This document shows positions 16,514 to 40,283 of a stretch of DNA of 48,479 bases, in pieces; the stretch's first letter is position 1; each line of letters begins with the position of its first letter. The DNA comes from Bacilli bacterium. Its GTDB lineage: Bacteria > Bacillota_I > Bacilli_A > RFN20 > CAG-826. The position numbers and the translations under genes are program-made. The notes beneath the pieces are model-generated. The model did not search any database and was not told the origin of the DNA. It was given only the letters and a program-made list of their open reading frames with translations. Location of the stretch: assembly GCA_044341785.1 (NCBI GenBank), contig JBIIRB010000001.1, positions 1 through 48,479 of the forward strand, read 5' to 3'.

Positions 16514-16972
16514 ATGGATTTCTTAAACTTAGCTTGGTTTGGTATCTTGATTTGGGCTCTTGTTTTTGTCATTGCCCTTATTGTTGAATTAATTGAACCT
16601 CAATTAGTGTCCATTTGGTTTGCCTTAGCTTCTTTTATTACACTATTGGTCCAAACAATCTTTTCTTTACCCTTTTTCTTTCAAGTCATTATTTTTATTC
16701 TTACTAGTGCTCTAGCACTTTATCTTTCGCGACCCATCTATCAGCAATTTATTAAAAAGCAAAAAACCACATTAACCAATGCTGCTAGCATGATAGGAAA
16801 AGATATCAAAATATTAACGACTTGTGATAAAGCCAATCCTGGTAAAGGGCTTTTTGGTGATGTCCAATGGACGATCATCACGGACGAAGACACGCGCTTT
16901 AAAACAAATGATATTGCCACAATTACCGCTTTAAAAGGTAATAAGGCTATCATTAAAAGGAAAGTAGGATAA
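16514..16972 (+). CDS. NfeD-family membrane protein
   Basis: Three N-terminal TM helices plus a C-terminal soluble beta-domain, placed immediately upstream of an SPFH gene (the classic NfeD-SPFH pair). Confidence 0.75.
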   Translation: MDFLNLAWFGILIWALVFVIALIVELIEPQLVSIWFALASFITLLVQTIFSLPFFFQVIIFILTSALALYLSRPIYQQFIKKQKTTLTNAASMIGKDIKILTTCDKANPGKGLFGDVQWTIITDEDTRFKTNDIATITALKGNKAIIKRKVG

Positions 16973-16976
16973 ATAC

Positions 16977-17894
16977 ATGGAAGTTTTTGGATTAATTGCA
17001 ATTTTTGTTATCGTATTTTTGCTTGTGATCGTCTTAACACGATCAATCATTATCGTGTCTCAAGCATCATCAGTCATTGTTCAACGCTTGGGTAAATATT
17101 ATAAGACTCTAGAAGCGGGTATCCATTTCAATATTCCTATTATTGATTCGGTTTTACCTTTCATTTCGATGAAAGAACGAGTGTCAGATTTTCCTCCACA
17201 ACCTGTCATTACCAAAGATAATGTAACGATGCAAATCGATACCGTGGTTTATTATCAAGTCACAGATTCTAAACTGTTTGCTTATGGTGTGGAACGTCCA
17301 ATTCAAGCCTTGGAGAACCTTACCGCAACCACGCTTCGTAATCTAATTGGGGACTTAGAACTTGATCAAACACTGACTTCACGCGATAAAATTAACGGCA
17401 AAATGTGGGAAGTTCTTGAAGAAGCTACCGATGCCTGGGGTATTAAAGTCAATCGCGTAGAATTGAAGAACATTATACCTCCTCGCGATATTCAAGAAGC
17501 CATGGAAAAACAAATGCGCGCTGAGCGTATGAAACGCCAAGTGATTTTAGATGCTGAAGGTCAAAAGCAAGCAGCTATTTTAGTCGCTGAAGGTGAACGA
17601 GCATCCGCAATTCTACGCGCTGAAGCTGTAAAAATTCAAAAAATAACGGAAGCAGAAGGTGAAGCATCGGCCATCTTAGCTATCTTTGAAGCTCAAGCAA
17701 AAGGAATTAAATTAATCAATACTGCTAAACCTGACTCGGCTTATTTAACTTTGAAAGGCTTTGAAGCCTTAGAAAAAGTCGCAAATGGTCAGGCAACTAA
17801 ACTGATCATCCCGAGTGAAATTCAAAATGTCACAGGGCTCGTCGCTTCTCTGAAAGAAGTGCTTACCGATCCGGAGAAAAAGAAAAAAGAATAG
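16977..17894 (+). CDS. SPFH/band-7 (stomatin/prohibitin-like) protein
   Basis: N-terminal TM anchor, an SPFH core (QPVITKDNVTMQIDTVVYYQV) and a coiled-coil region (IPPRDIQEAMEKQMRAERMKR). Confidence 0.9.
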   Translation: MEVFGLIAIFVIVFLLVIVLTRSIIIVSQASSVIVQRLGKYYKTLEAGIHFNIPIIDSVLPFISMKERVSDFPPQPVITKDNVTMQIDTVVYYQVTDSKLFAYGVERPIQALENLTATTLRNLIGDLELDQTLTSRDKINGKMWEVLEEATDAWGIKVNRVELKNIIPPRDIQEAMEKQMRAERMKRQVILDAEGQKQAAILVAEGERASAILRAEAVKIQKITEAEGEASAILAIFEAQAKGIKLINTAKPDSAYLTLKGFEALEKVANGQATKLIIPSEIQNVTGLVASLKEVLTDPEKKKKE

Positions 17895-17899
17895 ATCAC

Positions 17900-17927
17900 A
17901 AAACCAGCTAGATTAGCTGGTTTTTTT
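17900..17927. terminator. Bidirectional terminator between the convergent SPFH gene and glmS
   Basis: AAAA-CCAGCTA-gat-TAGCTGG-TTTTTTT. The T-run overlaps the glmS stop codon. Confidence 0.8.
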
Positions 17928-19713
17928 ATTCTACCGTTACCGATTTAGCCAAGTTTCTAGGCTTATCAATATCGTTTCCAAGATGAAGCGCGGTATAGTA
18001 AGACAAATACTGAGCAACTAATACTTTAATGAGAGGCGATAAATATACTTTAGAATCTCCTGTCACAAATTGATCATCATCTTTGGCTATCGCAAGATTA
18101 CTAATGATATAAACATTTGCTCCTCGAGCGAGCACTTCTTGAACGTTGGATCGTAACGCAGCAGCGCTCGTAGGATCAGAGATGAATACAAAAACTGGAA
18201 CGCCTTTTTTTATTAAGGCAATCGGACCATGTTTGAGTTCTCCACCTGGCAAGCCTTCGGAATGAATGTAAGTAATTTCCTTAAGCTTTAATGAAGCTTC
18301 TAAAGCCAAATCAAAATCATAGCCTCTTCCAAGAAAGAAGGCATTGGGTTGATTTTTGATTTCTGAAGCTATTTTTTCAATATCTTTTTTGGAATCAATC
18401 ACGCTTTTCATGGATTTAATCACTGCAACAAAATCAGTCAAAATAGCAGTATTTCCTACTAATGAAGCTTGCAACAAGGCTAATAAAGCAACTTGGGCAA
18501 CATACGCTTTTGTGGATGCAACCGCAATTTCAATCCCTGCATAAAGTAACAGAGTAAAATCTGCAATGCGATCAAGGGCTGAACCTTTGGTATTGGTAAT
18601 CGTTAAGATCGTGTTGCCACGTTCGGAAATAAGTTTAACCGATCGAATTAAATCAGCGGTTTCGCCACTTTGAGAAATGACAACGAACAGAGGATTATCG
18701 CCTTTTATTTCGGGATAATAAGCAAATTCACTTCCGATGTAAACACGGGTGGTTTTGCCAATCGATTCAAAATAACGCCGACCAATGAGCGCAGCATGAT
18801 AACTGGTTCCGCACGCAAGAAAAATAATTTGATCCGCTTCTTGAATTTTCTTCATCATCAAGGGATCAAAAACGAATTGATTTCCATCCGTATAGTTATC
18901 GAGCAAACGTTTGATCACTTCAGGAGCTTCTTCGATTTCTTTTAACATATAGTGGGGGTAACCATGTAAGGCAATGTCTTCAGATTTAATCTCGGTTTGG
19001 TGAAAAACCAAAGGTTTTTCTTCATGAGGATCGAGGTTTTTAACAACGACTTCTTTTTGACTGATGTAACCATATTGATAGTCAGTTAAAATATAAAAAT
19101 CTTTCGCGTAATTGAGCATCGGTAAATAGTCTGATGCTAAATAATGGGTATGTGAGCCTTTACCAATGACCAAAGGCGAATGGAGTTTAGCAAAATAAAC
19201 TTTTGAATCATCTAACTGATATAAGATTGCTAAAGCGTATGACCCTTCTAAATCTTCAAGGGTAAGTTTAATCGACAATAAGGGATCTTTTTTGGCGGTA
19301 GTTTGATAATAAAATTCTAAAAGATTGGCAATCACTTCAGTGTCGGTTTCAGAATAAAAATGAAACCCTTTATTTTCAAGTTTCTTTTTAAGGATACGAT
19401 AGTTGTCAATGACACCATTGTGGACGATATGGAAAAGCCCAGCATTGGATTGGTGAGGATGGGTATTTTTTAAATTAGGTTCGCCATGGGTCGCCCATCG
19501 TGTATGTCCAATGCCAACAGAAGCTTTCTGGTTGATTGGAATAATACGATTTAAATCATCAATGCGTGCAGGGATGCGAAAATGTTCAATTTTGCCTTGG
19601 GTTAAAAAAGCAGTTCCAGCAGAATCATAACCGCGATATTCAAGGGATTTTAAACCTTCAACTAGAAATGTTCTTAATGATTTTTCGCCTGCAGATGCTA
19701 CAATGCCACACAT
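17926..19713 (-). CDS. glmS: Glutamine--fructose-6-phosphate aminotransferase
   Basis: The true N-terminus is MCGIVASAG (Cys nucleophile) at the ATG at 19713, with AAGGAG 6 nt upstream. There are two SIS domains and the C-terminus is NLAKSVTVE. The 49-codon extension in the ORF track overlaps glmM and is rejected. Confidence 0.95.
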   Translation of the reverse strand: MCGIVASAGEKSLRTFLVEGLKSLEYRGYDSAGTAFLTQGKIEHFRIPARIDDLNRIIPINQKASVGIGHTRWATHGEPNLKNTHPHQSNAGLFHIVHNGVIDNYRILKKKLENKGFHFYSETDTEVIANLLEFYYQTTAKKDPLLSIKLTLEDLEGSYALAILYQLDDSKVYFAKLHSPLVIGKGSHTHYLASDYLPMLNYAKDFYILTDYQYGYISQKEVVVKNLDPHEEKPLVFHQTEIKSEDIALHGYPHYMLKEIEEAPEVIKRLLDNYTDGNQFVFDPLMMKKIQEADQIIFLACGTSYHAALIGRRYFESIGKTTRVYIGSEFAYYPEIKGDNPLFVVISQSGETADLIRSVKLISERGNTILTITNTKGSALDRIADFTLLLYAGIEIAVASTKAYVAQVALLALLQASLVGNTAILTDFVAVIKSMKSVIDSKKDIEKIASEIKNQPNAFFLGRGYDFDLALEASLKLKEITYIHSEGLPGGELKHGPIALIKKGVPVFVFISDPTSAAALRSNVQEVLARGANVYIISNLAIAKDDDQFVTGDSKVYLSPLIKVLVAQYLSYYTALHLGNDIDKPRNLAKSVTVE

Positions 19714-19714
19714 A

Positions 19715-21052
19715 TTATTCTCCTTGACCTTCGAGTTGATTGATAACTGCAACGATTTGATTAACATTATTTTCGCATATTTCTTGGGTTTGTGCTTCAA
19801 CCATGACGCGAATGAGCGATTCCGTGCCACTCGCACGAACAAGGATGCGACCATGCCCATTCAATGCCGATTGTTTCATTTTAATCATATCTTTGAGCAC
19901 TTGCTTATGTAAAATGGTTTCTTTATTGTTGACATGAACATTGCGAAGTACTTGCGGATATAGTTTTAATTGACTGAGGGTTTTGGAAAGCGTTAAACCC
20001 TCATCCTTGAAAAGAATATTGAAGAGCCGAACCATGGATAGCAAACCTGAACCCGTATTTAAAAGATCATAAAACATGACGTGACCTGATTGTTCACCAC
20101 CTAATATAAGTTGATGATTTTTTAATCCGAGTTGAACGTGACGATCTCCGACGGGAACTTCGATGATGGAAATGCCTTCTTGTTCTAAGGATTTTTTTAA
20201 TCCTAAATTACTCATGATGGTTAAAACAACTTGATTTTTGACAAGTATATTATTTTTCTTCATTTCCAAAGCGTGAATAAAAATTTGGGCATCCCCATCA
20301 ATCGTGAATCCATTCGGTAGCATAGCCATCATGCGGTCCCCGTCACCATCAAAAGAAACACCAAGAAGGTATTTCCCTTTTTTTAAACCATCTTTTAACG
20401 AATCTAAGTAGGTCGCACCGGAAAGATAATTAATATTTTTTCCATTAGGTTGGTGATGAATGAGTTCAACATTTAGACCCAACTTTTGAATCAATAATGA
20501 AATGAGGTAAGAAACCGAACCATTTGCACAATCAATTAAAACTTTCCCCTTAGGAGACTTGAATGTCGCTTGTTGAGCAATAAAGTCAATGTATTGATGG
20601 ATTAAATCTTTTCCATCCACGATGGTTCCTTTAGTTCTTTGTTTTAATGGAACTGGATGGTCGAGGAATTGTTCAATCAATGATTCAACATCTTCACTTA
20701 ATTTTTCGCCTTTGTGATTAAAAATTTTAATGCCATTATCCTCAAAGGGATTATGAGAAGCAGAAATCATGAATGCAAAATCAAAATTTTTAGTTGATGA
20801 GAGTAAATAGGAAAGGGATGGCGTGGTCGTATAACCCAAATCAATCACCGTAGCGCCACGTTCAATTAAGGCTTGTTTAATAGCTTCAGAAAGTAATGGA
20901 GATGAATATCGCGGATCTTGTCCAATCAAAATTCGATTGGTTTTTCCATGAGGATAATCACCTAAAAATAACCCTATATTTCTCGCTAAAGAAGGGGTAA
21001 GCATGTCACCGAAGCGTCCTCTAACACCATCGGTTCCAAAGTATTTCCCCAT
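19715..21052 (-). CDS. glmM: Phosphoglucosamine mutase
   Basis: Contains GTDGVRG, the phosphoserine loop ISASHNPFEDNGIK, and FDGDGDR. Confidence 0.95.
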   Translation of the reverse strand: MGKYFGTDGVRGRFGDMLTPSLARNIGLFLGDYPHGKTNRILIGQDPRYSSPLLSEAIKQALIERGATVIDLGYTTTPSLSYLLSSTKNFDFAFMISASHNPFEDNGIKIFNHKGEKLSEDVESLIEQFLDHPVPLKQRTKGTIVDGKDLIHQYIDFIAQQATFKSPKGKVLIDCANGSVSYLISLLIQKLGLNVELIHHQPNGKNINYLSGATYLDSLKDGLKKGKYLLGVSFDGDGDRMMAMLPNGFTIDGDAQIFIHALEMKKNNILVKNQVVLTIMSNLGLKKSLEQEGISIIEVPVGDRHVQLGLKNHQLILGGEQSGHVMFYDLLNTGSGLLSMVRLFNILFKDEGLTLSKTLSQLKLYPQVLRNVHVNNKETILHKQVLKDMIKMKQSALNGHGRILVRASGTESLIRVMVEAQTQEICENNVNQIVAVINQLEGQGE

Positions 21053-21054
21053 GA

Positions 21055-21810
21055 TTAATTACTCGTATTAGCTTCCATATAATGAACAAGAACTTTTTGA
21101 AAATTATCATGAAAAACAGCTTCGAGTTCACCACCATAAGCAATCGAAATTCTTCCGGTTTCTTCAGAAACCACAACCGTGACCGAATCGGATAATTCAG
21201 AAATACCAATGGCAGCGCGATGGCGTGAACCATACTTACCGGCCATAGGTTTAGTGGTGGGGGTGTAATAAACGGATGCGGCTATGATTAACCCATTGCG
21301 AACCACAATTGCACCATCATGTAAACGTGTGCCTTGGAAAAAAATGGTCATGATTAATTCAGACGAAATTGGTGCATTAATTTCAACACCGTTCTTCATA
21401 AACTCATTCAGATTTTGCTTTTTTTCAAGTGTAATAATCGCCCCTGTTTTGGTTTTAGATAAATATCCTACAGCTTCATTAATTTCTTGATAAACTTTTT
21501 GATTTTCATCTGCAGTTTGAACAATTTTCTTTTGTTTAAATTTAAACAGATTATCAATGAGTGCTTTAATATCAATCATGTTAAATTCAACAAAAATATA
21601 AACGAGTAAGGCGAATAAAAAAATGAGAACAAAGGTTAAAAATCCAAACTGGAAAAAATAGTAACTCACAATAATGCCAGCGTATAAAAGAATGAACGGT
21701 AAAGAATAAAATTTTCGAGTAACATAAATGATAATAAAAAGAGGGACTAAAATTAAAAACAAAATTCCTAACCCGAAATCGATTTGATTTATCATTTGAT
21801 TGAACACCAT
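21055..21810 (-). CDS. cdaA: Diadenylate cyclase CdaA (membrane-anchored DAC domain)
   Basis: Three N-terminal TM helices, then a DAC domain with LHDGAIVV and GSRHRAAIG motifs. It sits directly upstream of glmM. Confidence 0.9.
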   Translation of the reverse strand: MVFNQMINQIDFGLGILFLILVPLFIIIYVTRKFYSLPFILLYAGIIVSYYFFQFGFLTFVLIFLFALLVYIFVEFNMIDIKALIDNLFKFKQKKIVQTADENQKVYQEINEAVGYLSKTKTGAIITLEKKQNLNEFMKNGVEINAPISSELIMTIFFQGTRLHDGAIVVRNGLIIAASVYYTPTTKPMAGKYGSRHRAAIGISELSDSVTVVVSEETGRISIAYGGELEAVFHDNFQKVLVHYMEANTSN

Positions 21811-23856: not shown

Positions 23857-24141
23857 ATGGATATCAAATCTAAAGAAGGATGCTATTACATCGTCAATGA
23901 AAACCAAGACATGGTTGCCCACATTGATTATCATTTTGATTCGCAAGCGCGCATGGTGGTCACAAGTACGTACGTTCATCCTTCATTACGAGGGCAAGGT
24001 ATTGCCAATCGATTGATGGAAAAAATCATTGCGTTGGCTATCCAAGAAAAGCGTTTCATTATTCCTATTTGTAGTTTTGCGGTTAAAGTATTATCGCAAC
24101 CGGCTTATATACATTTAAAAGATCCAACTTGGCGCGCTTGA
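23857..24141 (+). CDS. Small GNAT-like N-acetyltransferase (YjdJ-type)
   Basis: 94 aa. HPSLRGQGIANRLMEKIIALA is the acetyl-CoA-binding R/Q-x-x-G-x-G/A motif. AAGGAG lies 7 nt upstream of the ATG. Confidence 0.7.
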   Translation: MDIKSKEGCYYIVNENQDMVAHIDYHFDSQARMVVTSTYVHPSLRGQGIANRLMEKIIALAIQEKRFIIPICSFAVKVLSQPAYIHLKDPTWRA

Positions 24142-24206
24142 GACGATTCGAACGTCTGACCCCAACCTTCGGAGGGTTGTGCTCTAATCCACTGAGCTAC
24201 AAGCGC
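24130..24206 (-). tRNA. tRNA-Arg(CCG): tRNA-Arg, anticodon CCG
   Basis: Reverse complement: GCGCTTG-TA-GCTC-AGTGGATTA-GAGC-A-CAACC-CTCCGAA-GGTTG-GGGTC-AGACG-TTCGAAT-CGTCT-CAAGCGC-G-CCA. Confidence 0.9.
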
Positions 24207-24240
24207 ATGAATGTAGCATATCACCTTGAAGCGAAAAATA

Positions 24241-24271
24241 AAAAGGTGAACGCAAAGCTCACCTTTTTTTT
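24241..24271 (-). terminator. Terminator-like hairpin after nqrF
   Basis: Minus strand: A-run, GGTGA-gctttgcgt-TCACC, then TTTT. A/T runs on both sides extend the stem. Confidence 0.5.
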
Positions 24272-24280
24272 GTTCATGAA

Positions 24281-25366
24281 TTAGGAGAATTTATCAAAGT
24301 AAACGTTTTCGGTTTTGATTTGGTGTTTATTTAATACTTTGATACACGCATCAATCATGCCCGGGGATCCACATAAATAAGCTTCATGATTTTCTAGACC
24401 TCCGGTCATACGATCTAAAACATCGGTGATTAAACCAGTTGCACCTTTCCAATTATCATTAGGCAAAGGACTAGAAAGTGCCGGGATATACTCGAAATTT
24501 GGATATTCTTTTTGAAGTTGTGCAAACTCAGCATCATAGTAAAGATCTTTGACGGCTTTAGCACCGAAGAAATAACGGACCTTTCTGGGCATGCCTAAGC
24601 GTTTTAAACGAGCAAGAATGGATCGAATGGGTGCTTTTCCAGATCCACCTGCGATACACACGATATCTTTCGTGGATTGTTCTTGGAGATAAAAATTACC
24701 ATAAGGACCGGTTACAATTAACTTATCACCTTCCTGAAGAGCCTGAAATACATAGGTGGAAACCACACCTTTAGGAACAAATCGCACAATGAATTCAATA
24801 TGACTTGGATCCGCCGGATCGGAAGCAATGGAATACGCTCGTACAACATCGATTCCTGGGACTTTAATTTGGGCATATTGTCCAGGTTTAAATGGCATGG
24901 TTCTTGGATTCAATAGTTGAAAACGAAGCAACTTTATATCGTAGGTTAATTGTTCCATTTTGACGAGTTTGACTGAAAATTCTTTGGCTGTTAACATCGA
25001 AGATGGGATTTCAATTTTAATAGTCCCTTGGGGCTTAACTTGGCAAGATAAACGAACACCGGTGGCTTTATCGTTAGCGCTTAACATGGGAGTTTCAGTT
25101 GGACGAACATCACCGCCACCTTCTGTGACTTTGCATTTACATAGACCGCATGTGGCTTTACCACCGCAAGCCGAAGGAATAAAAATTTTGTTTTGCGCAA
25201 GCACATTAAGCAATGTGTCATCGCCGGTAAAATTAATTGTCTTTAGGTTATTAATGACAACGGCTTTAGGACCACTGTTGCCAAGAATCACATCCACAAA
25301 AATAATTATTAAAGTGATGATGAACAATACTGCAATGAGGATAAGTGGGGAATAAAAGACTTCCAT
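24281..25366 (-). CDS. nqrF: NqrF-type subunit: TM anchor plus 2Fe-2S ferredoxin plus FAD/NAD(H)-binding reductase
   Basis: N-terminal TM helix, a 2Fe-2S cysteine cluster (ACGGKATCGLCKC ... LSCQV), the FAD motif RAYSIAS and the NAD(H) motif IAGGSGKAPIRS. Confidence 0.85.
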   Translation of the reverse strand: MEVFYSPLILIAVLFIITLIIIFVDVILGNSGPKAVVINNLKTINFTGDDTLLNVLAQNKIFIPSACGGKATCGLCKCKVTEGGGDVRPTETPMLSANDKATGVRLSCQVKPQGTIKIEIPSSMLTAKEFSVKLVKMEQLTYDIKLLRFQLLNPRTMPFKPGQYAQIKVPGIDVVRAYSIASDPADPSHIEFIVRFVPKGVVSTYVFQALQEGDKLIVTGPYGNFYLQEQSTKDIVCIAGGSGKAPIRSILARLKRLGMPRKVRYFFGAKAVKDLYYDAEFAQLQKEYPNFEYIPALSSPLPNDNWKGATGLITDVLDRMTGGLENHEAYLCGSPGMIDACIKVLNKHQIKTENVYFDKFS

Positions 25367-25381
25367 GTTAAAAACCTTTCT

Positions 25382-25978
25382 TTATTGTACGACTGGTTGT
25401 AAACTGGCTAAACCAGCAAAACCAATAAACGCTAACGCAAGAATTCCCAAGATGACAAAGGCAATCGCTTTGCCTTTAAGACCTTTAGGTAAATCTGAAA
25501 CCACTGACATTTTTTCTCTCACTGAGGCGAGTAATGTAATCGCAATTGCCCACCCGACGGAAGATCCAAAGGCAAAAACGGTGGTTTCCCAAAAACCGTA
25601 TTCATAGTTCACAAAAAATAAAGAAACTGCTAAGACGATGCAATTGACCGTAATTAAAGGAAGGTAAATACCAAATGTATTATAAAGTGCTGGAAGAAAA
25701 CGTTGAATCGCAATTTCAAGGAATTGAACTGTGGCTGCAATGGTAATCATAAAGACTAAAAGATCTAAGGTTTCCGTTTCCGTTGCCACTAAAAATTGAT
25801 AAATAGGCCAGTTAAGCATCGCGGTTAATGTCGTAACAATAATCACAGCGATTCCCATTCCTTTGGCGTTCGAAACATTCGTGGAAATAGCAATTAAAGG
25901 ACACATACCCAAAATGGATGCTAAGGCGATGTTAAACGGAAGTAAGGAAGCTAAGAAAATTTCTAATAATGCATTCAT
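25382..25978 (-). CDS. nqrE: NqrE/RnfA-family integral membrane subunit
   Basis: 198 aa with 6 TM helices. The conserved cysteines are in GMCPLIAIS (Cys26) and PLITVNCIVLAV. Confidence 0.85.
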   Translation of the reverse strand: MNALLEIFLASLLPFNIALASILGMCPLIAISTNVSNAKGMGIAVIIVTTLTAMLNWPIYQFLVATETETLDLLVFMITIAATVQFLEIAIQRFLPALYNTFGIYLPLITVNCIVLAVSLFFVNYEYGFWETTVFAFGSSVGWAIAITLLASVREKMSVVSDLPKGLKGKAIAFVILGILALAFIGFAGLASLQPVVQ

Positions 25979-25992
25979 GGTTGTTTCCTCGT

Positions 25993-26619
25993 TTATTCTT
26001 CGTAATACTTAAGCCAAACGCGAAGACCCCAAATAAAGAGAGCAATAACAAAGAACCCTCCAGGAGCAATCGCAAAAATAATCCAATTTATCCAGTCGGT
26101 AGGCATCACTTGAAAATTAAGAATAGTTCCTTGAGAGAACGCTTCCCGAATGACTGACATCATTAAAAGAACGAACGTGTAACCTAAACCCGAGGCAAGA
26201 GCATCAATCGTTGAATAACGGACGGGATTTTTAACTGCAAACGCTTCTGCACGACCCATCACAATACAATTCGTGATGATTAAACCAACGTAGGCACCTA
26301 ATCGTTCAGCAATTTCAGGAGTATAGGCTTTTAAAAACATTTCAAAAATGATGGTGAAGGCAGAAATAATCACCATATACGTCACCATGCGAACTTGAGA
26401 GGGAATATAATTTCGAATCAATGAAATAAATGCACTTGAGAGCATCGTGACAAAGGTAACACCTAACCCCATTGCAATGGCGTTCTCCACCATATTGGCG
26501 ACCGCTAAGGATGAACAAATCCCGAGCACCGTCACCACAATCGGGTTATTGCGAGCAATACCATCTCGCAAAACATTAAACCATTTTGTGTAATTCAGTC
26601 TTAATAAAAATTTTTTCAT
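25993..26619 (-). CDS. nqrD: NqrD/RnfE-family integral membrane subunit
   Basis: 208 aa; contains NNPIVVTVLGICSSLAV and GLIITNCIVMGRAEAF. Confidence 0.85.
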   Translation of the reverse strand: MKKFLLRLNYTKWFNVLRDGIARNNPIVVTVLGICSSLAVANMVENAIAMGLGVTFVTMLSSAFISLIRNYIPSQVRMVTYMVIISAFTIIFEMFLKAYTPEIAERLGAYVGLIITNCIVMGRAEAFAVKNPVRYSTIDALASGLGYTFVLLMMSVIREAFSQGTILNFQVMPTDWINWIIFAIAPGGFFVIALFIWGLRVWLKYYEE

Positions 26620-26620
26620 C

Positions 26621-27289
26621 TTAAATGACTCCTAACGAGTTTTCCCAATCAGCATTTCCTGACGGATTGATTTGGACACGATACGTTTCATTGAGCAATA
26701 ACTCAAATTGCTTTGACGTTCGGGTTGCTCCGACAATCGACGTGACATAATTTTCTAAAGCGGCGGAATCTTGGGTTTTATCAATCCGAAGTTCCGGCAC
26801 CATCATTTTATCTTTCAACTCGTCTAAGAATTTGGCTTCTTTAACTTTGGCACCTAAACCAGGAGTCTCTTTTTGTGAAATAATCGCAACTGATTCAATC
26901 GTTTCTAAATCATCTTCTAAGGTTAAAAAACCAACGATCGGCCCCCAAACACCGGCACCAAAGTTTTTGTTAAACTCAATAGTGACTGATAATGTCGTTT
27001 TATTGCGATAGGCGACTAATTCAAGGGGATTCTCTTCAGTATATTTCTTATACACAACCGTACCTTGAATGGTTTCGATTTCTGCTTCAAAAACCTCGGC
27101 GAGATTGTCATTAGTAAAATCGGTTACACCTTGACTGCGAAGAACCGTCGATTGCCTTAATGTTAAATCATTTTGTTCAATTAATCCTTTTGTCAATAAA
27201 TCCGTAACCGTTAAAAGCGTTGCCGTGATGACACCCATTAGTAAGACAAAAAACACAATCTTGCCATATTGCGAAAGACGTTGATTCAT
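26621..27289 (-). CDS. nqrC: NqrC/RnfG-family FMN-binding subunit
   Basis: N-terminal TM anchor plus an FMN_bind domain. The covalent-FMN threonine motif (S/T)GAT is present as SIVGATRTS. Confidence 0.8.
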   Translation of the reverse strand: MNQRLSQYGKIVFFVLLMGVITATLLTVTDLLTKGLIEQNDLTLRQSTVLRSQGVTDFTNDNLAEVFEAEIETIQGTVVYKKYTEENPLELVAYRNKTTLSVTIEFNKNFGAGVWGPIVGFLTLEDDLETIESVAIISQKETPGLGAKVKEAKFLDELKDKMMVPELRIDKTQDSAALENYVTSIVGATRTSKQFELLLNETYRVQINPSGNADWENSLGVI

Positions 27290-27290
27290 A

Positions 27291-28265
27291 TTATTTCACT
27301 CCTTTGATCAGTGCTGGGATTGGTTTTAAATTCACCATCGAATCAATTAAAGGTGCAAAAGCATTCGATAAGATGACAGCATAGATAACCCCTTCAATGG
27401 AACTGGTATAGGTTCGGATAAGAACGGTAATCAAACCTGCAAAAACGCCATAAACGATTTTTCCAACCGTGGTGTTAGGGCTGGTATAGGGATCCGGAAG
27501 AATAAAGAACGCTGCAAACATAACGGTTCCCACAAGCGTGCTATATTCCCAAAGAGCAAATTGAGTACCATCCACATACATTTGGCCTAAGAATGTGAGG
27601 AGCATGACCGCTCCTAAATAAGCAAATGTGATTTTTAAATCGATGGATTTCAAATAGGCTAATCCTAGACCTAAAACGATAATACCTAAGCGAAAGGAAT
27701 CACCAATATAACCGTTGGTTGGGCCCATGAGCAATTCAAGATAAGTCAAGGTAAACGGGGTGACCGTGTGATTTTTTAAAAGACCAGCAATGTTACCTGG
27801 TGCGGCAACGATGAGGGCAAACGAAACTGATAAAAAAATGATGCCAACCACCGAGGGATTGAAAACATACTTTTTATGGCCACCAAAAACGAGCTTGCCG
27901 TAAAGGGAGGCAACTATCGCTCCGACGGCAGGCATCCAAAACAAGAAACTACCATTGATGGGATGAACAATCGTTATAGGAAGAAGCATGGTCATTAATA
28001 AAGGAGTATAAAGCCAGGCTGGATCAATTTTACGTTTTCTAAATTTAGCAAACGTTAATTCAACCAACAAGCCACCGAGAACCGCAGATAAAAAGATATA
28101 AAGAATTTCCACATGAAAGGATGGAAAAGGGGTCACAACTCGATAAAACATCAGCAGGAGTAAAGCCCCGCTTAAATACACTAAATTTCGATCAATAAAA
28201 AGCTGACGGAACGCATCTTGAATTGACGCAATTAAAGTCGATTTCTTCGCGATTTTTAAATCCAT
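27291..28265 (-). CDS. nqrB: NqrB/RnfD-family integral membrane subunit (RnfD-like length)
   Basis: 324-aa polytopic protein with family motifs YVFNPSVVGIIF and FILPDPYTSP. I cannot see a canonical SGAT flavinylation motif by eye; the nearest candidate is HTVTPF. Confidence 0.75.
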   Translation of the reverse strand: MDLKIAKKSTLIASIQDAFRQLFIDRNLVYLSGALLLLMFYRVVTPFPSFHVEILYIFLSAVLGGLLVELTFAKFRKRKIDPAWLYTPLLMTMLLPITIVHPINGSFLFWMPAVGAIVASLYGKLVFGGHKKYVFNPSVVGIIFLSVSFALIVAAPGNIAGLLKNHTVTPFTLTYLELLMGPTNGYIGDSFRLGIIVLGLGLAYLKSIDLKITFAYLGAVMLLTFLGQMYVDGTQFALWEYSTLVGTVMFAAFFILPDPYTSPNTTVGKIVYGVFAGLITVLIRTYTSSIEGVIYAVILSNAFAPLIDSMVNLKPIPALIKGVK

Positions 28266-28310: not shown

Positions 28311-28351
28311 AAAAAAATAAACCATAGACATTATAATACAAAGTCTATGGT
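28311..28351 (-). terminator. Hairpin plus T-run between tRNA-Leu(CAG) and nqrB
   Basis: Minus strand: AACCATAGAC-tttgtattataat-GTCTATGGTT then TATTTTTTT. It has a 10-bp stem and a 13-nt loop, and ends 45 nt before the nqrB ATG. Confidence 0.55.
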
Positions 28352-28370
28352 TGTGCATAAATTCTTCGAT

Positions 28371-28455
28371 TGGTGCAGCCGGGGAGACTCGAACTCCCAA
28401 ACCGTGAAGTACTAGAACCTGAATCTAGCGCGTCTGCCAATTTCGCCACGGCTGC
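28371..28455 (-). tRNA. tRNA-Leu(CAG): tRNA-Leu, anticodon CAG
   Basis: The reverse complement has acceptor GCAGCCG/CGGCTGC, anticodon stem CTAGA/TCTAG, loop TTCAGGT, a long variable arm, T arm GGGAG-TTCGAGT-CTCCC and an encoded CCA. Confidence 0.9.
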
Positions 28456-30587: not shown

Positions 30588-31046
30588 TTAAGCGACGAAT
30601 TGGACAAGCTGAGAAACTAACCGCTCTAAATAAAGTTGATCAATTTCATCAAATTGGGCTAATTGATAAGAATCAACGTCTAACACTCCGAGCAGTTTCT
30701 GACCTTTCAAAAGCGGAACGACAATTTCAGAGTTTGAACCTTCATCACAGGCAATATGGCCAGGGAAATCATGGACATTTTTCACAACTTGCGTTTTTCT
30801 TGTCTTTGCAGCCGCTCCGCATACACCGCGGTTTAAAGAAATAGATACACACGCCACTTTGCCTTGAAACGGCCCAAGATAAAGTTCAGAGCCATCAAAA
30901 AGATAAAATCCAACCCAGCTAAAATGGGGAAAATGTTGTTTGATAAGCGCACTCACATTAGCATAGATCGAAAGAGGATTTTGTTGACCTTCAAGCACAC
31001 CCGTAAGTGCGAGAAGCAACGATTCGTACGATTGCTTTTTGTTCAT
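30588..31046 (-). CDS. GAF-domain free methionine-(R)-sulfoxide reductase (fRMsr/MsrC-like)
   Basis: GKVACVSISLNRGVCGAAA ... FPGHIACDEGSNSEIVVP matches the fRMsr cysteine pattern. The start is set at the ATG at 31046 (MNKKQSY), which forms an ATGA overlap with the msrA stop. Confidence 0.75.
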   Translation of the reverse strand: MNKKQSYESLLLALTGVLEGQQNPLSIYANVSALIKQHFPHFSWVGFYLFDGSELYLGPFQGKVACVSISLNRGVCGAAAKTRKTQVVKNVHDFPGHIACDEGSNSEIVVPLLKGQKLLGVLDVDSYQLAQFDEIDQLYLERLVSQLVQFVA

Positions 31047-31543
31047 TTTTGTTCTTCTTTTTTGATCATGCCTAAGTTGATATGACAATATCCACGAGGA
31101 TTTTTATCTAAGTAGTCTTGGTGATAAGTTTCTGCATCATAAAAACCATTTAATGGAATGACTTCCACCGTAATTTTTTCTTGATATTTTTGTTGTTCTT
31201 GCTTGATAAATTGTTTGGCAATAGTTGCATCGTTTTCTTGTTGATAATAAATACCGGTACGATATTGAATTCCTTCATCATGCCCTTGACGATTCACCGA
31301 GGTGGGTTCAATAAATCGAAACATGTGCATGAGTAATTTATCTAATGTCATTAAAGCATCATCGTATTCAATCCAAACGGCCTCAGCATGGGTGGCTTTT
31401 TCATCGCAAACTTCTTCATATGTCGGGTTGGCATAATTGCCATTGCAATACCCTACTTGAGTATTGATGACGCCTTTAAGCTTTTTATAATAGGCTTCAA
31501 CTCCCCAGAAACAACCGCCTGCTAATACAATGGTTTTCTTCAT
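31043..31543 (-). CDS. msrA: Peptide-methionine (S)-S-oxide reductase
   Basis: The active site is GGCFWG, with GYCNGNYANPTYEEVC downstream. The preferred start is the ATG at 31543 (AAGAGG 6 nt upstream); the ORF-track start at 31558 is also possible. Confidence 0.9.
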   Translation of the reverse strand: MKKTIVLAGGCFWGVEAYYKKLKGVINTQVGYCNGNYANPTYEEVCDEKATHAEAVWIEYDDALMTLDKLLMHMFRFIEPTSVNRQGHDEGIQYRTGIYYQQENDATIAKQFIKQEQQKYQEKITVEVIPLNGFYDAETYHQDYLDKNPRGYCHINLGMIKKEEQK

Positions 31544-31622
31544 AATCAACCTCTTCATTATCTTACCAATTATTCATTGATAGTAAAGCATTAGTGCTTT
31601 AAGATAAAGCGAGGTTATATTG

Positions 31623-32435
31623 ATGGCTATAAAAGATTTTTATACGTTAAATCATGGAGTTAAAATTCCAAAAATAGGTTTTGGAACTTGGCAAATTAAA
31701 GAAGGCGATGAAGCCTATCAATCAACTTTATTCGCATTAAAATCTGGCTATCGTCATATCGACACTGCAGCAGCGTATGGCAATGAAAAGAGTGTCGGTC
31801 TCGCAATTAAGGATTCAGGAATTGCCCGAGAAGATATTTATGTGACAACCAAATTGCAATCGCATATCAAAGGATATTATTCAACGTTGGTCGAATGCGA
31901 ACGCTCATTAGAAAAATTAGGATTAAAATATCTCGATCTCTATTTAATTCATGCCCCTTGGCCATGGGCTTTCATCGGCGTGGATAACACGCAAGGCAAC
32001 ATTGAATCTTGGAAAGCGATGATTGAACTTCATAAGCAAGGAAAAATAAAAAGTATCGGTGTCAGTAATTTTGAAATCAAAGACTTACAACCCATTGTGG
32101 AAGCGACAGGATTTATCCCCCACGTTAATCAAATACCTTTTTGGATAGGGAGACCTCAAACCGAGTTGCGTGCTTATTGTGATCAACACAAGATACTCGT
32201 TGAAGCCTATTCCCCATTAGCAACGGGAAGAATTTTTAAACTTGAAATTTTACATTCATTAGCAAAAAAGTACAACGTGACTCCAGCACAACTTGCCATC
32301 CGTTATACGTTAGACATGGGAACATTACCTCTACCAAAATCAACGAATCAAGCTCGAATCATCGAAAACATTCAACTTGATTTTTCCATTTCGAAAGTAG
32401 ATTTAATGATGCTGAGCCAAATCAAAACCGAATAA
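31623..32435 (+). CDS. Aldo/keto reductase (YvgN/YtbE / 2,5-diketo-D-gluconate reductase-like)
   Basis: Contains GYRHIDTAAAYGNE, LDLYLIHAPW and IGVSNF. The ATG at 31623 has GAGG 8 nt upstream. Confidence 0.9.
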   Translation: MAIKDFYTLNHGVKIPKIGFGTWQIKEGDEAYQSTLFALKSGYRHIDTAAAYGNEKSVGLAIKDSGIAREDIYVTTKLQSHIKGYYSTLVECERSLEKLGLKYLDLYLIHAPWPWAFIGVDNTQGNIESWKAMIELHKQGKIKSIGVSNFEIKDLQPIVEATGFIPHVNQIPFWIGRPQTELRAYCDQHKILVEAYSPLATGRIFKLEILHSLAKKYNVTPAQLAIRYTLDMGTLPLPKSTNQARIIENIQLDFSISKVDLMMLSQIKTE

Positions 32436-32437
32436 GT

Positions 32438-32749
32438 CTATTGTTCCCCGTACGCTAAAGGCCCACGATATAAACTCATTCCACCCATCACATTCGTCAC
32501 TTGAAAACCATTTTTACCTAAATAATCCGCAACAACTTGGGAACGCGCACCTGAGTAACAAACAATAAAGTAATGTTTATTTTTTTCGATTTTGTTGATG
32601 TGATTCATAAAATCTGAAATGGGTGTTAAAAGTGCTCCAGGAATATGGCCTTCTTCAAATTCTTCAGGTTCGCGAACATCAAGAATATGAATAGGACCTT
32701 TTTTGATTAATTGTTCGAGTTCATTCATCATGACTGTTTTGTACATCAA
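32438..32749 (-). CDS. Single-domain rhodanese (sulfurtransferase)
   Basis: 103 aa with active-site loop VCYSGARS. Its ATG directly abuts the stop of the upstream reductase gene. Confidence 0.85.
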   Translation of the reverse strand: MMYKTVMMNELEQLIKKGPIHILDVREPEEFEEGHIPGALLTPISDFMNHINKIEKNKHYFIVCYSGARSQVVADYLGKNGFQVTNVMGGMSLYRGPLAYGEQ

Positions 32750-34387
32750 TTAGTTTCCTTTCCAAGCACGATACATATTGTAACCGCCTTCTAAATTGTA
32801 AACATTATAACCTTTACTTCTTAAGATACGTTCAGCATTGTAACCTTTTGATCCAGCATCGCAATAGACGATGATAGTTTTGTCTTTGGGCAAGGTTGCA
32901 TATTGCTCATAGAAAACATCGATATCGATATGGAAATCATTGGGGATATGACCATACGCTAATCGTTCCATCGCGGGTCGGACATCAACAAATAATGCTC
33001 CTTGCTTTTGATAAGATTCCACCTTGCTAGGATAGATGACTTTGGTAATTCCTTGTATCCGATTTTGGGCAACATATCCAATCATATTCACGATATCTTT
33101 AGCAGTACCATAAGGAGGTGAGTAACTTAATTCAAGTTCTTGAAGATCTGTAATTTTCATATTCGCCTTCATTGCCGTGGCAAGTACATCAATTCGTTTA
33201 TCCACACCTTTTTCACCAACCCCTTGGACCCCTAAGATACGTTCATTAGTTGGATCAAAAAGCACTTTGATATCAATCGTGGTTGCGCCAGGATAATAGC
33301 TGACATGGTCATATCCGTGCACATGCAGCACGTCAAAAGTTTGATCCGCCAATTGCCGTTCATTAAGACCCGTTGAAGCAAAACTTAAATTAAATAATCG
33401 CAAAATGGCAGTGCCCAGTGAGCCTTTATTGGTGGCAGGCAACCCACTTAAGATATCCGCGAGTTGTCGCCCTTGGCGATTAGCAGGCGAAGCTAATGAA
33501 ACTAACGCATCTTTACCTGAAATGTTATGTTTGACGATAATAGCATCGCCAATGGCATATATATGCTTAGCAGATGTTTGAAAATGATAATCAACCACAA
33601 TACCCTCACGCATGCCTAATTCAAGATTGGCTTGTTTAGCTAAAGTACTTTCAGGAATAACACCGATTGCAGTAATGATAAAATCAGTTTTAATCCGCGT
33701 TCCATCTTGAAGGCATACTTCAGTTTTCTTAACTTCAACAATTTCATGATCAGTGTAAACATCCACACCATGCTGAGTCAGAGTTTGTTTGGCAAAAGAA
33801 GCCATATCCAAATCAAAAATAGGAAGCACTTCTTTAGCTCGTTCTACAATCGTTACTTTAAGACCTTTTTTATGAAGGTTTTCTGCAACTTCAAGTCCGA
33901 TATAACCCGCACCGACGATGACGACGTGTTGAGGATTATTTTGTTTAATAAAAGCCATAATTGAATCTAGATTAGGAATATTTCTTAATTCAAAGTGAGG
34001 CATCAATGATAATCCTGGAATGTTAGGGACAATCGGACGAGCACCTGGAGATAAAACTAATTCGTCATAATGGAGCTCGTTATTAATTCCATCTTTTTGA
34101 TAAATTACTAATTGCCGATCAGGATGAATAGCGATGACCTCGGTGGAGGAACGAATGTCTAATTGAAATCGATTGACTAAATCTTTTTCTTTAACGACCA
34201 AAAGACGCGTTCGTGAAGGAATTTCTCCTGACATAAAATAAGGTAGACCACAATTTGCAAAAGAAACATAAGGTCCTTTTTCAAAAACAATGATTGTATC
34301 GTCAATGTTTAATCGACGATAACGGGTTGCAAAACTCATGCCACCCGCAACTCCTCCGATAACAACAATCGTTTTTTTAGTTTGCAT
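32750..34387 (-). CDS. CoA-disulfide/persulfide reductase with C-terminal rhodanese domain (CoADR-RHD type)
   Basis: FAD site VVIGGVAGG, redox cysteine in SFANCGLPYF, NAD(P)H site VGAGYIGLE, and a C-terminal rhodanese with VYCDAGSKG. Confidence 0.85.
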   Translation of the reverse strand: MQTKKTIVVIGGVAGGMSFATRYRRLNIDDTIIVFEKGPYVSFANCGLPYFMSGEIPSRTRLLVVKEKDLVNRFQLDIRSSTEVIAIHPDRQLVIYQKDGINNELHYDELVLSPGARPIVPNIPGLSLMPHFELRNIPNLDSIMAFIKQNNPQHVVIVGAGYIGLEVAENLHKKGLKVTIVERAKEVLPIFDLDMASFAKQTLTQHGVDVYTDHEIVEVKKTEVCLQDGTRIKTDFIITAIGVIPESTLAKQANLELGMREGIVVDYHFQTSAKHIYAIGDAIIVKHNISGKDALVSLASPANRQGRQLADILSGLPATNKGSLGTAILRLFNLSFASTGLNERQLADQTFDVLHVHGYDHVSYYPGATTIDIKVLFDPTNERILGVQGVGEKGVDKRIDVLATAMKANMKITDLQELELSYSPPYGTAKDIVNMIGYVAQNRIQGITKVIYPSKVESYQKQGALFVDVRPAMERLAYGHIPNDFHIDIDVFYEQYATLPKDKTIIVYCDAGSKGYNAERILRSKGYNVYNLEGGYNMYRAWKGN

Positions 34388-34608: not shown

Positions 34609-36213
34609 TTATAGCACTAAGACCATGCCACCCACAACGGTCATTAATAATAATAAAAGAAAAATAGCCGTATTAAATTTAGGTTGTCGACTCCGCAACC
34701 AACTAAATACGAAACCATCGCGTTTGACGATCCCTACATAAACGACTAACCCTAATGAGGTGTAAAAAATATAATCAAGCCAAGGTTGAGGATCCATCAG
34801 TTGGATGGTTGAAAAAGGATTGTTAAAAAACACATTGCCAATCCAAGAATAACCAATACCGATACCGATGATTCCACAAGCGAGCGCTCCTAGTGAAATA
34901 AAAGTAAAAGGAGATAAATGGACAGAATGCATTCTTTTTCCTGGAAGCATCCATAACAATTTAGAAAATGAAATCAACGTGGCAAGGTTGATGAAGTTAA
35001 AGAGTAACATCTTCACTGCATCCTCTTTGAATGCATACTTGATGAGCGATTTTGATATATAGCCATTGAACAATGGAGCACCCGTGATCCCTAATATACC
35101 AATGATCAACAAGATGGAAATCCAAGGCATTGTTTTCCAAAGGCCACGAATGTCAGCAATTTTTTTGGTTTGATAATGTTCAATGATCACGCCGGCAACC
35201 AAGAACAATAACCCTTTAAACAAGGCGTGATTAAAAACATGGAGTAAACCGCCGACATAGCTATTATCATGGTCACTCATTAATCCCATCAAGAGTAAAC
35301 CTAATTGCGAAATGGTGTGGAACGCTAGCACTTGTTTTAAATCTTTTTGTGACATTGCAAATAATGCACCACCGACAGCTGAAAGCACGCCGAACCAAAA
35401 AATGACTTCAGAGAATTGATAAGGTGCATGAAACATTTGCAAATGTAAACGAATCAACATATAAATGGCACCTTTAACAATGAGTCCTGACAAAAGCGCG
35501 CTGACACTTGACGTGGCAACACCATGTGCTTTGGGTAACCAACTGTATACTGGGAAAAAAGCAGCCTTAACAAAGATGCCACTCATCATCAATGTATAGG
35601 CTAATTGAATGGCAGGTTGCGCTAACATGGCGGGTGTCATTTCACGCATGATGATTTGAATATTTAACGTTCCAAATGCGTAATATAAAAACATCGTTCC
35701 CATTAAAAATAGCATCGCAGCTAAGGAAGAAATGAGTAAATAGTGTAGCCCTGCTTTGAAGGCAGATTCATTTTTTTTGTACACAATCAGAATGGTCACT
35801 AACAAGGTGGTTACTTCGATAAAAACAAACATATTAAATAAATCATTCGTGGAAATCAATCCAATGAATACTGCTTCTAAGAAAAGTAAAAAGAAGTAAA
35901 ACTTTGACTCCTTTTTCATCGAAGGATAGGCATAAAGCATGATGATCGTAAAAATGAATACGGTAAGACCGATAAATAGGGCAGACGTTTCATCCACAAA
36001 GAAACTGATGACAAAGCGCTCATCATAAGGACCAAAGACGATATAAATCGCTTCTTGAGTATTTTGAATCTCGGTCCATAACCAAACCGTCAGGATCATC
36101 AAAGCGACTTGATTCAAAAAACTTAAATGAATAATCCCTTTCCAAGGAATCAAAAAAATCAATAATGAGACGAATACAGGTAAAAAAAGGATCGCAACGG
36201 GAAGAAAACTCAT
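34609..36213 (-). CDS. mrpD: MrpD/NuoN-like antiporter subunit (proton-conducting membrane transporter family)
   Basis: 534-aa polytopic protein with characteristic segments (WLPKAHGVATSSVSALLSG and HVFNHALFKGLLFLVAG). It overlaps mrpC by 4 nt. Confidence 0.85.
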   Translation of the reverse strand: MSFLPVAILFLPVFVSLLIFLIPWKGIIHLSFLNQVALMILTVWLWTEIQNTQEAIYIVFGPYDERFVISFFVDETSALFIGLTVFIFTIIMLYAYPSMKKESKFYFFLLFLEAVFIGLISTNDLFNMFVFIEVTTLLVTILIVYKKNESAFKAGLHYLLISSLAAMLFLMGTMFLYYAFGTLNIQIIMREMTPAMLAQPAIQLAYTLMMSGIFVKAAFFPVYSWLPKAHGVATSSVSALLSGLIVKGAIYMLIRLHLQMFHAPYQFSEVIFWFGVLSAVGGALFAMSQKDLKQVLAFHTISQLGLLLMGLMSDHDNSYVGGLLHVFNHALFKGLLFLVAGVIIEHYQTKKIADIRGLWKTMPWISILLIIGILGITGAPLFNGYISKSLIKYAFKEDAVKMLLFNFINLATLISFSKLLWMLPGKRMHSVHLSPFTFISLGALACGIIGIGIGYSWIGNVFFNNPFSTIQLMDPQPWLDYIFYTSLGLVVYVGIVKRDGFVFSWLRSRQPKFNTAIFLLLLLMTVVGGMVLVL

Positions 36214-40264: not shown

Positions 40265-40283
40265 CAATTTCCTTTTGATTCAA

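Follow-up and report, generated by a model that had tools for sequence, protein, structure and literature searches.

The window analysed here is the whole 48,479-nt contig JBIIRB010000001.1 (assembly GCA_044341785.1) of a Bacilli bacterium, and the system in question is a five-gene operon on its minus strand that resembles NQR, the Na+ pump branch of the RNF/NQR redox-pump superfamily, without a gene for NqrA (Table 1). The open reading frames (ORFs) were found exactly where an earlier note on this DNA had placed them, with the same lengths and tight packing (gaps of 1, 1, 14 and 15 nt from B to F). Pfam domain assignments, gene by gene from B to F, were NQR2_RnfD_RnfE; FMN_bind; Rnf-Nqr; Rnf-Nqr; and Fer2, FAD_binding_6 and NAD_binding_1, in agreement with the Nqr/Rnf signatures that the note had read in the five subunits, and the motifs it had quoted were all present (VGATRTS in C; CGGKATCGLCKC, RAYS and GGSGKAP in F). 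All five proteins matched both Nqr and Rnf models of NCBIfam, each under the curated equivalog cutoff. TGA is a stop codon in the window. Scans also recovered the flanks that had been described, a tRNA and a CotH lipoprotein gene upstream and a terminator downstream. An AGAGGTG ribosome-binding site, downstream of a promoter-like site, precedes the B gene; the promoter-like site is a consensus match only, in a region with no surplus of such sites relative to shuffled sequences, and a hairpin after tRNA-Leu overlaps it. The promoter-like site, ribosome-binding site, terminator and flanking tRNAs mark the five genes as an autonomous transcription unit. Together, these results establish the operon as a real, self-contained five-gene unit with an NqrF-type NADH input module.

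Table 1. Features of the NqrA-less operon and its boundaries (positions in the window).
Feature	Position	Strand	Length or basis
NqrB/RnfD-like membrane subunit gene (B)	27291..28265	-	324 aa
NqrC/RnfG-like subunit gene (C)	26621..27289	-	222 aa
NqrD-like membrane subunit gene (D)	25993..26619	-	208 aa
NqrE-like membrane subunit gene (E)	25382..25978	-	198 aa
NqrF-like NADH-oxidising subunit gene (F)	24281..25366	-	361 aa
Promoter-like site TGCACA-16-TATAAT	28330..28357	-	consensus scan, 10/12 matches; between tRNA-Leu and the first gene
Intrinsic terminator	24240..24268	-	terminator scan: 12-bp stem, 5-nt loop, T-run; 13 nt past the nqrF-like stop codon
tRNA-Leu(cag)	28371-28455		upstream of the operon
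tRNA-Arg(ccg)	24130-24206		downstream of the operon

Subunit F comprises an N-terminal transmembrane helix, a 2Fe-2S ferredoxin domain and an FNR-like domain that binds flavin adenine dinucleotide (FAD) and NADH. It aligned over its full length with Vibrio cholerae NqrF, N-terminal helix included (193 bits), and scored 272.5 bits against the nqrF model of NCBIfam (TIGR01941, cutoff 295), with MmoC next at 207.6 bits. At 361 aa it is shorter than canonical NqrF (405–428 aa), to which it is 36% identical. The F proteins of all operons of this kind, hereafter A-less (359–365 aa; related loci are cited by L number), lack two insertions present in canonical NqrF (compared with L070, L071, L073 and L078), one of ~35 aa ahead of the RAYS FAD motif and one of ~6–15 aa after 'VRI/VRF'. 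Without these insertions, A-less F matches monooxygenase reductases in length. Subunit D scored 214 bits for nqrD vs 179 bits for rnfE in NCBIfam, and 162.6 bits for V. cholerae NqrD vs 135 bits for RnfE in the PDB; the corresponding scores of subunit E were 175 (nqrE) vs 165 bits (rnfA) and 147 (V. cholerae NqrE) vs 133 bits (RnfA). All four D/E cysteines of the intramembrane 2Fe-2S site are conserved, with C35 and C118 of D aligned to C29 and C112 of V. cholerae NqrD, and C26 and C113 of E aligned to C26 and C120 of V. cholerae NqrE.

Subunit C, of 222 aa (RnfG, 177–254 aa; NqrC, 264–283 aa), consists of an N-terminal membrane anchor and one FMN_bind domain. Its NCBIfam scores were 67 bits for nqrC vs 45 bits for rnfG, and its best PDB match was the NqrC entry 3lwx. 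The motif 'TSIVGAT' at residues 183–189, inside the FMN_bind domain, predicts attachment of flavin mononucleotide (FMN) at T189 and fits the G-A-T core of the ApbE flavinylation motif D-x-x-[S/T]-G-A-[S/T] (PMC12052999). At the sequence level, the path from NADH through the FAD and 2Fe-2S centres of F and the 2Fe-2S centre of D/E to the FMN of C is thereby intact: NADH would be oxidized at the FAD domain of membrane-anchored F, electrons would pass through the 2Fe-2S centre of F to the intramembrane centre on the four D/E cysteines, and from there they would reach the FMN on T189 of C at the outer face, where attachment by an ApbE-type transferase is expected. Elsewhere in the family, NqrC-like subunits of 505–646 aa with 2–4 FMN_bind domains occur in Haploplasma, an Acholeplasmataceae metagenome-assembled genome (MAG) and Mariniplasma (L012:1374-2969, L018:10863-12803 and L044:4748-6265), and the L044 protein has three good flavinylation motifs. 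Such multi-FMN-domain layouts have been linked to extracytosolic electron transfer (PMC8238504).

Profile hidden Markov models (HMMs) for NqrA, RnfC, RnfB, ApbE and NqrM were built from authentic sequences of annotated operons, those for NqrA spanning three phyla, and the partner-gene searches covered this 48-kb contig and ±10 kb around related operons. None of the five HMMs found a match in the contig or within ±10 kb in ~50 related loci, which bears out the earlier claim that no NqrA, RnfC or RnfB gene belongs to the operon, and neither RnfC nor RnfB was found by HMM and tblastn in any locus with the B-C-D-E-F arrangement. As a positive control, the RnfC HMM was strong in four ordinary rnf loci only (L061–L064), in which the NqrA HMM weakly detected RnfC. 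The 48-kb window contains no men or cyd genes, and no neighbouring gene recurred across the clade, be it one that might hint at an acceptor (reductases, ApbE or cytochromes) or any other. An NqrA-sized gene of 450 aa upstream of B in nine loci was considered as NqrA and rejected, being an aldehyde dehydrogenase. A 443-aa ORF upstream of B in the Clostridia locus L080 had no NCBIfam match and no Pfam domain on record, and a very divergent NqrA is conceivable there because the NqrA HMM was not run on L080–L082; L081 and L082 have no comparable ORF.

To place the operon, neighbour-joining trees were built from 24–28 sequences with 200 bootstraps, with limited NQR sampling (Alpha-, Beta- and Gammaproteobacteria and Bacteroidota) and RNF references from Gammaproteobacteria, Bacteroidota, Fusobacteriota and Clostridia. 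The split between RNF and the A-less operons plus canonical NQR was recovered with 100% bootstrap for D, E and C and 84–90% for B. Canonical NQR was monophyletic with the A-less clade outside it (86–100%), and the A-less groups of Mycoplasmatota and of Clostridia were each monophyletic (95–100%); the branching among these two groups and canonical NQR was weakly split in the concatenation (55% vs 44%). Since B, C, D and E fall on the NQR side, the operon is not a chimera of Rnf and Nqr parts, and the 'hybrid' of the earlier note does not stand: the four core subunits group with NQR at 84–100% and F is NqrF-like over its full length. These trees place the operon in a deep NQR-side lineage that branches outside the canonical six-subunit complexes. 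B looks Rnf-like because NqrB-specific additions are absent, not because of an Rnf origin. NqrA is homologous to RnfC (PMC12174285) and is encoded at the same place in the operon; the gene must therefore have been present in the ancestor of NQR, and the A-less state is most simply explained by secondary loss. The RnfD-like B and the compact F may be ancestral states. The idea of an evolutionary intermediate is at best weakly supported: the deep sister or grade position relative to canonical NQR, the RnfD-like B and the compact F would suit it, whereas the homology of NqrA and RnfC favours loss; the other description offered, a minimised NADH-driven pump, appears a fair one.

The unusual subunit is B. 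Its only Pfam domain is PF03116 (169 bits), and its NCBIfam scores were 115 bits for rnfD and 80–92 bits for nqrB, all under the cutoff. Its 324 aa compare with 310–352 aa for RnfD and 400–412 aa for NqrB; the Rnf-like lengths remarked on earlier thus apply to B and also to C, whereas D and E fit both families and F is shorter than canonical NqrF. What B lacks are the ~80 N-terminal residues that include the quinone pocket of NqrB, which gives it an RnfD-type architecture: 68 residues precede its equivalent of NqrB E144 (E69), compared with a median of 54 in the A-less clade, 59 in RnfD and 137 in canonical NqrB. The pocket is made by two N-terminal NqrB helices absent in RnfD (PMC12174285), and length statistics and fold comparison indicate that these are missing across the whole A-less clade. 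An AlphaFold2 model of B (predicted local distance difference test score, pLDDT, 82.9; predicted template modelling score, pTM, 0.83) was compared with known structures by Foldseek, yielding target-normalised template modelling scores of 0.71–0.77 with near-complete cover for RnfD vs 0.56–0.67 with partial cover for NqrB.

In alignments with PDB structures, the B segment 'PGNIAGLL' corresponds to 'GYSGATAL' of V. cholerae NqrB and 'VTTATPL' of Clostridium tetanomorphum RnfD. NqrB carries its covalent FMN on Thr236 within S-G-A-T, and the window segment has neither Thr nor Ser, as suspected in the earlier note, which could see no canonical SGAT motif. A Thr-to-Ala swap at the flavinylation site abolishes flavinylation (PMC12052999). 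Because the FMN-attachment Thr is absent, the covalent FMN that links C to riboflavin is predicted not to be attachable in the window B subunit. A shift of the flavinylation site to 'TVTPF', which lies 12 residues further downstream, was also weighed and rejected, as this segment lacks the G-A context, has the wrong spacing to the GxIGE motif and is not conserved in P0122, a relative with 48% identity. A residue-level alignment of all loci in the Mycoplasmatota branch showed a canonical B FMN site in ~11 loci, a degenerate one in ~27 (Thr retained, preceding Ala replaced) and an absent or deleted one in ~17, and the window and its nearest relatives belong to the last group. Clade-wide loss of the site, as a regular-expression search over representatives had suggested, was rejected on the basis of this canonical-to-deleted spectrum and of the Clostridia, which mostly keep the site. 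Mean pairwise identity within the Mycoplasmatota branch was 42% for B vs 67% for D, 69% for E and 63% for F; in canonical NQR, B reached 62%, and D, E and F scored as in the Mycoplasmatota branch. This difference indicates that B of the Mycoplasmatota branch is specifically under relaxed constraint.

The A-less arrangement, for which the note had proposed a survey, turned out to be widespread. A scan of one genome per species gave 61 loci, ~50 of them with B-C-D-E-F in order wherever the contig was long enough, in Acholeplasmataceae, Izemoplasmatales (including Izimoplasma ZiA1), Mariniplasma, Haploplasma, Erysipelotrichaceae, unnamed Bacilli or Bacillota MAGs and one Limnochordia. This order was seen in L007–L059, L065 and L080–L082 and is invariant in Mycoplasmatota and in the large Clostridia family described below; ORFs are intact in more than 45 genomes, B is retained in every genome, and carriers with a complete genome include CP076021.1, CP017948.1, OY781159.1 and OY775910.1. 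The nearest operons came from freshwater 'Bacilli', Izemoplasmatales and Acholeplasmataceae MAGs, which places the host in the wall-less-Bacilli radiation and agrees with an acholeplasma-like host, a possibility raised earlier. The exact NqrF-like protein recurred on 16 JGI metagenome contigs with identical gene order, and near-identical copies lie on contigs of 290–325 kb. With B as the query against 1.84 billion representative proteins, only 11 were found at E <= 1e-30, which marks the window B as a divergent subfamily. One locus, L008 (CAMCVC010000033.1), is labelled 'MAG: Staphylococcus epidermidis' and carries the same B-C-D-E-F operon as L016, a Lake Mendota 'Bacilli bacterium' MAG; the two agree in gene lengths and are nearly equal in identity to the window, and the L008 label seems to stem from an error in binning or naming.

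Seeding a second search with the B subunit of the basal Limnochordia locus revealed a much larger Clostridia family of 5,951 proteins at E <= 1e-20. Three Clostridia gene contexts (L080–L082, two of them on contigs of more than 2 Mb) showed B-C-D-E-F without A. In this branch, B exceeds the rnfD cutoff and F exceeds the nqrF cutoff, so that annotation makes such operons look hybrid. A sixth gene directly follows nqrF in all three contexts (L080:12927-13385, L081:12890-13357 and L082:8625-9095) and encodes an apparently soluble protein of 152–156 aa, 49–75% identical, with an invariant Cys in 'CPF' and two His in 'HMI..H'. It had no NCBIfam match and no Pfam domain on record, and is a candidate for an extra subunit or acceptor. 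As the missing subunit of the window operon this 155-aa protein was rejected, there being no relative in the window or in Mycoplasmatota loci.

Operons of this type had been noticed before, which removes the novelty implied by the earlier note. Genome papers report an NqrA-free NqrBCDEF cluster in Pseudothermotoga thermarum and P. lettingae (PMC4148951, 2014), in Clostridium ultunense and Alkaliphilus metalliredigens (PMC5924567, 2018) and in 'Ca. Izimaplasma' ZiA1, with reference to Acholeplasma palmae (PMC6256511, a 2018 Tenericutes genome paper). In Pseudothermotoga and C. ultunense, nqrA is reported to be absent from the whole genome (PMC4148951, PMC5924567). These genome papers took NqrA to be the quinone site, which later structures revised, and they state that the acceptor is unknown, as the earlier note also had it in calling the terminal acceptor an open question. 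The published clusters share the B-C-D-E-F order, the NqrF-type input and the lack of nqrA, and the ZiA1 locus (L045) was recovered here with the same order; the Pseudothermotoga (Thermotogae) clusters are likened by their published description. They appear in the literature as one-paragraph annotations that do not remark on the RnfD-like B, the lost quinone-pocket helices, the decay of the B FMN site or the phylogeny, and the window adds a member from fresh water that has lost the B FMN site. The searchable literature, with subscription journals outside the search, yielded no functional study of an A-less complex and only passing remarks in genome papers. The operon therefore adds to an A-less NQR family that had been noticed but is biochemically uncharacterised, with the covalent-FMN site of B also lost in the window lineage. 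We consider it very likely that it encodes a functional NqrA-less 'NqrBCDEF' complex of the NQR branch in an uncultured freshwater member of the wall-less Bacilli.

Its nearest phylogenetic neighbour is canonical NqrABCDEF (V. cholerae; PDB 7xk3 and 8a1t), with which it shares the NqrF architecture, the four D/E cysteines, the C flavinylation motif, several riboflavin-ligand residues and, in B, the acidic residues aligned to E144 and D397. It differs in having no NqrA and no linked apbE or nqrM, in the loss of ~80 N-terminal residues and of the FMN-bearing Thr236 from B and of the two insertions from F, and in that its five proteins fall below the NCBIfam equivalog cutoffs. NqrA stands at the head of the canonical operon, whereas here a promoter-like site and a tRNA lie directly upstream of B. 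With RNF (RnfCDGEAB; Clostridium tetanomorphum 7zc6, A. woodii 9eri and A. vinelandii 8ahx) the operon shares the D/G/E/A-type core and, in B, the size, N-terminus and fold coverage of RnfD, but it has neither RnfC (FMN, 2x[4Fe-4S] and an NAD+ site) nor RnfB (poly-ferredoxin input), its input module is NqrF, and its core subunits separate from RNF at 84–100% bootstrap. Two-subunit 'NQR/RNF-like' systems combine an NqrB/RnfD domain fused to an NAD-binding domain (PF03116 and PF00175) with an NqrC-like protein, and one-way electron flow from NAD(P)H to a flavin outside the cytosol has been proposed for them (Meheust et al. 2021, PMC8238504; PMC10979944). They too are trimmed derivatives of NQR/RNF whose NqrB/RnfD-like subunit has lost the flavinylation site; they lack D, E and F, whereas the window operon has an unfused B and the complete path from F through D/E to C. 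In the flavinylation survey, NqrF is the defining mark of NQR (PMC8238504), so the window operon would count there as 'NQR', with the A-less type not set apart.

Most plausibly the complex is NADH-driven, and it is probably Na+-motive. Where do the electrons go? Because the RnfC module and the NqrB quinone pocket are missing, the covalent-FMN Thr of B is lost and B evolves fast, we tentatively suggest, with somewhat less than even confidence, that electrons exit at or near the outer-face flavin of C instead of taking the canonical return path, and that export of Na+ or H+ is coupled to this. In that case the acceptor would lie outside the cytosol or on the membrane surface, with O2, free flavin or quinone-like compounds, Fe(III) and a surface reductase as candidates; the three relatives with 2–4 FMN-binding domains in C would suit such an exit. 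B would be retained for docking C and conducting the ion, with the reaction driving export of Na+ (or H+). The nearby Mrp antiporter would fit a sodium cycle, which would help a wall-less cell control its ion content and volume. A bolder extension, which we regard as rather unlikely in its full form, is that A-less complexes constitute a third functional class of the RNF/NQR superfamily, in which the Mycoplasmatota branch, its return path through B abandoned, would be an NADH-driven, ion-pumping electron exporter to the cell surface (a flavin-based extracellular electron-transfer pump) and would account in molecular terms for the 'flavin-terminated' membrane NADH oxidase classically described in acholeplasmas.

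Several observations weigh against an exit at C. Residues that hydrogen-bond riboflavin in V. cholerae NqrB (T162, N203, F342 and D346; PMC10643135) are kept in the window B as T87, N136, F254 and D258, as is the gate residue aligned to F338; N200 of the riboflavin site is replaced by Tyr (Y133). The acidic counterparts of NqrB E144 and D397, E69 and D308, are retained as well. We take E144 and D397, from mutagenesis work, to have a role in Na+ transport. With these riboflavin-site and acidic residues in place, B could still be redox-active, with electrons returning to the cytoplasmic side. Because the B FMN site of the Clostridia branch is mostly canonical, the complete route through B is probably retained in A-less complexes generally. 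ApbE was not found at the operon loci (the window and ±10 kb of its relatives) and may sit elsewhere in the genome, and the genes adjoining the operon encode no extracellular acceptor protein. Finally, the three loci with multi-FMN C subunits all fall in one sub-lineage with a deleted B FMN site, in which the window is not included; L018 groups in the trees with L013 and L026 of this same sub-lineage, and the correlation between multi-FMN C and the deleted B site may reflect few evolutionary events rather than three independent ones.

The features kept in B would suit an NADH:quinone (menaquinone) oxidoreductase, in which a membrane quinone, bound where the cytoplasmic rim of B is exposed, would receive electrons from C by way of a non-covalent flavin and riboflavin in B, with NqrA dispensable; this main rival is possible, although on balance we find it doubtful. 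NqrA carries no cofactor and has no assigned function (PMC12174285), the NQR quinone binds NqrB and not NqrA (PMC10643135), and retention of riboflavin ligands and gate residues in the window, of B in every genome and of the B FMN site in Clostridia all agree with such a reaction. It is harder to reconcile with the loss of both quinone-pocket helices from the whole A-less clade, with the covalent FMN between C and riboflavin that could not be attached in the window B, and with a window devoid of men and cyd genes. Many Mollicutes and fermentative Clostridia are not known to make quinones, which also speaks against a quinone reductase.

A cytoplasmic exit could instead be supplied by a partner encoded elsewhere, either a borrowed NqrA- or RnfC-like subunit or an unrecognised one such as the 155-aa protein of Clostridia. 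The searches reached only ±10 kb around each operon, Izimaplasma genomes are reported to carry separate complete Rnf operons (PMC6256511), the Clostridia members have their conserved sixth gene, and B keeps an RnfD-like cytoplasmic face and most riboflavin-site residues. Even so, we judge a hidden partner improbable: no such gene is linked in ~50 Mycoplasmatota loci, the statements of whole-genome nqrA absence cover Pseudothermotoga and C. ultunense (PMC4148951, PMC5924567), the sixth gene has no relative in the window or related loci, and NqrF input combined with an NAD+-reducing RnfC output would make a futile cycle. Least probable, in our view, is that the operon is a true RNF-to-NQR intermediate that never had NqrA, or a decaying, functionless remnant. 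Its deep position outside canonical NQR, the RnfD-like B, the compact F without NqrF insertions, the weakly supported branching order of the two A-less clades and canonical NQR, and the fast evolution of B could be read in this way. An operon that never had A conflicts with the homology and shared operon position of NqrA and RnfC, which require the line leading to NQR to have kept the gene; decay conflicts with intact ORFs in more than 45 genomes, with D, E and F 60–70% identical across the phylum, with conserved cofactor ligands and with recurrence of the exact protein on 16 metagenome contigs. An exit at the flavin of C thus remains the reading that we tentatively prefer.

A natural A-less NQR bears on which steps of the electron path ion pumping needs, those through NqrB or those through the D/E pair, and the family lends itself naturally to testing what NqrA and NqrB each do. 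A lineage without the quinone pocket, many members of which also lack the covalent FMN of B, offers a ready-made deletion series for pumping models. The family comprises thousands of proteins in Clostridia and Mycoplasmatota, gut and environmental fermenters among them, and is annotated inconsistently (RnfD, NqrB, NqrF or "FAD-binding oxidoreductase"), so that quinone respiration or Rnf activity may be read erroneously into metabolic reconstructions. An external acceptor would endow free-living wall-less bacteria with an unexpected capacity resembling respiration.

The scan also returned partial arrangements. Two Ruminococcus MAG loci (L062:8425-10738 and L063:822-3135) carry an rnfC-rnfD pair with no G, E, A or B among the same-strand ORFs within 10 kb. 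In a Clostridia MAG (L067:3768-6023), a B/D-like gene precedes two Rnf-Nqr (D/E-type) genes, and neither a C-like nor an F-like gene intervenes or comes next; the D/E-type proteins are only 23–24% identical to those of the window.

Around the operon, a seven-gene cluster for an Mrp-type (Mnh) cation/proton antiporter lies ~6 kb away (34609-38819, minus strand), with Proton_antipo_M and MnhB domains plus small membrane subunits, followed by a CitMHS/ArsB-type transporter gene (38978-40267). The Mrp cluster is compatible with a sodium cycle, as context from one genome. Between the two systems, at 30588-34387, are redox and oxidative-stress genes for a GAF-domain protein (a candidate free methionine-sulfoxide reductase), MsrA, an aldo-keto reductase, a rhodanese and a CoA-disulfide-reductase-like fusion of pyridine-nucleotide disulfide oxidoreductase and rhodanese; MsrA-like and GAF genes lie just upstream of the operon in ~5 related loci, for example L016. 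Ten tRNA genes are spread over the 48 kb (at 9234, 21897, 22037, 22119, 23691, 24130, 28371, 34488, 38890 and 40284), nine on the minus strand and most standing singly between protein-coding operons; two of them bracket the nqr-like operon. Diadenylate cyclase (DAC domain) and glmS-type genes occupy 17926-21810, and the related locus L001 has the same order of DAC, a phosphoglucosamine-mutase-type gene and glmS. This group presumably matches the conserved cdaA-glmM-glmS arrangement of Firmicutes, kept in a probably wall-less lineage. It adjoins a Band_7 gene that is preceded by a small membrane-protein gene (16514-17894).

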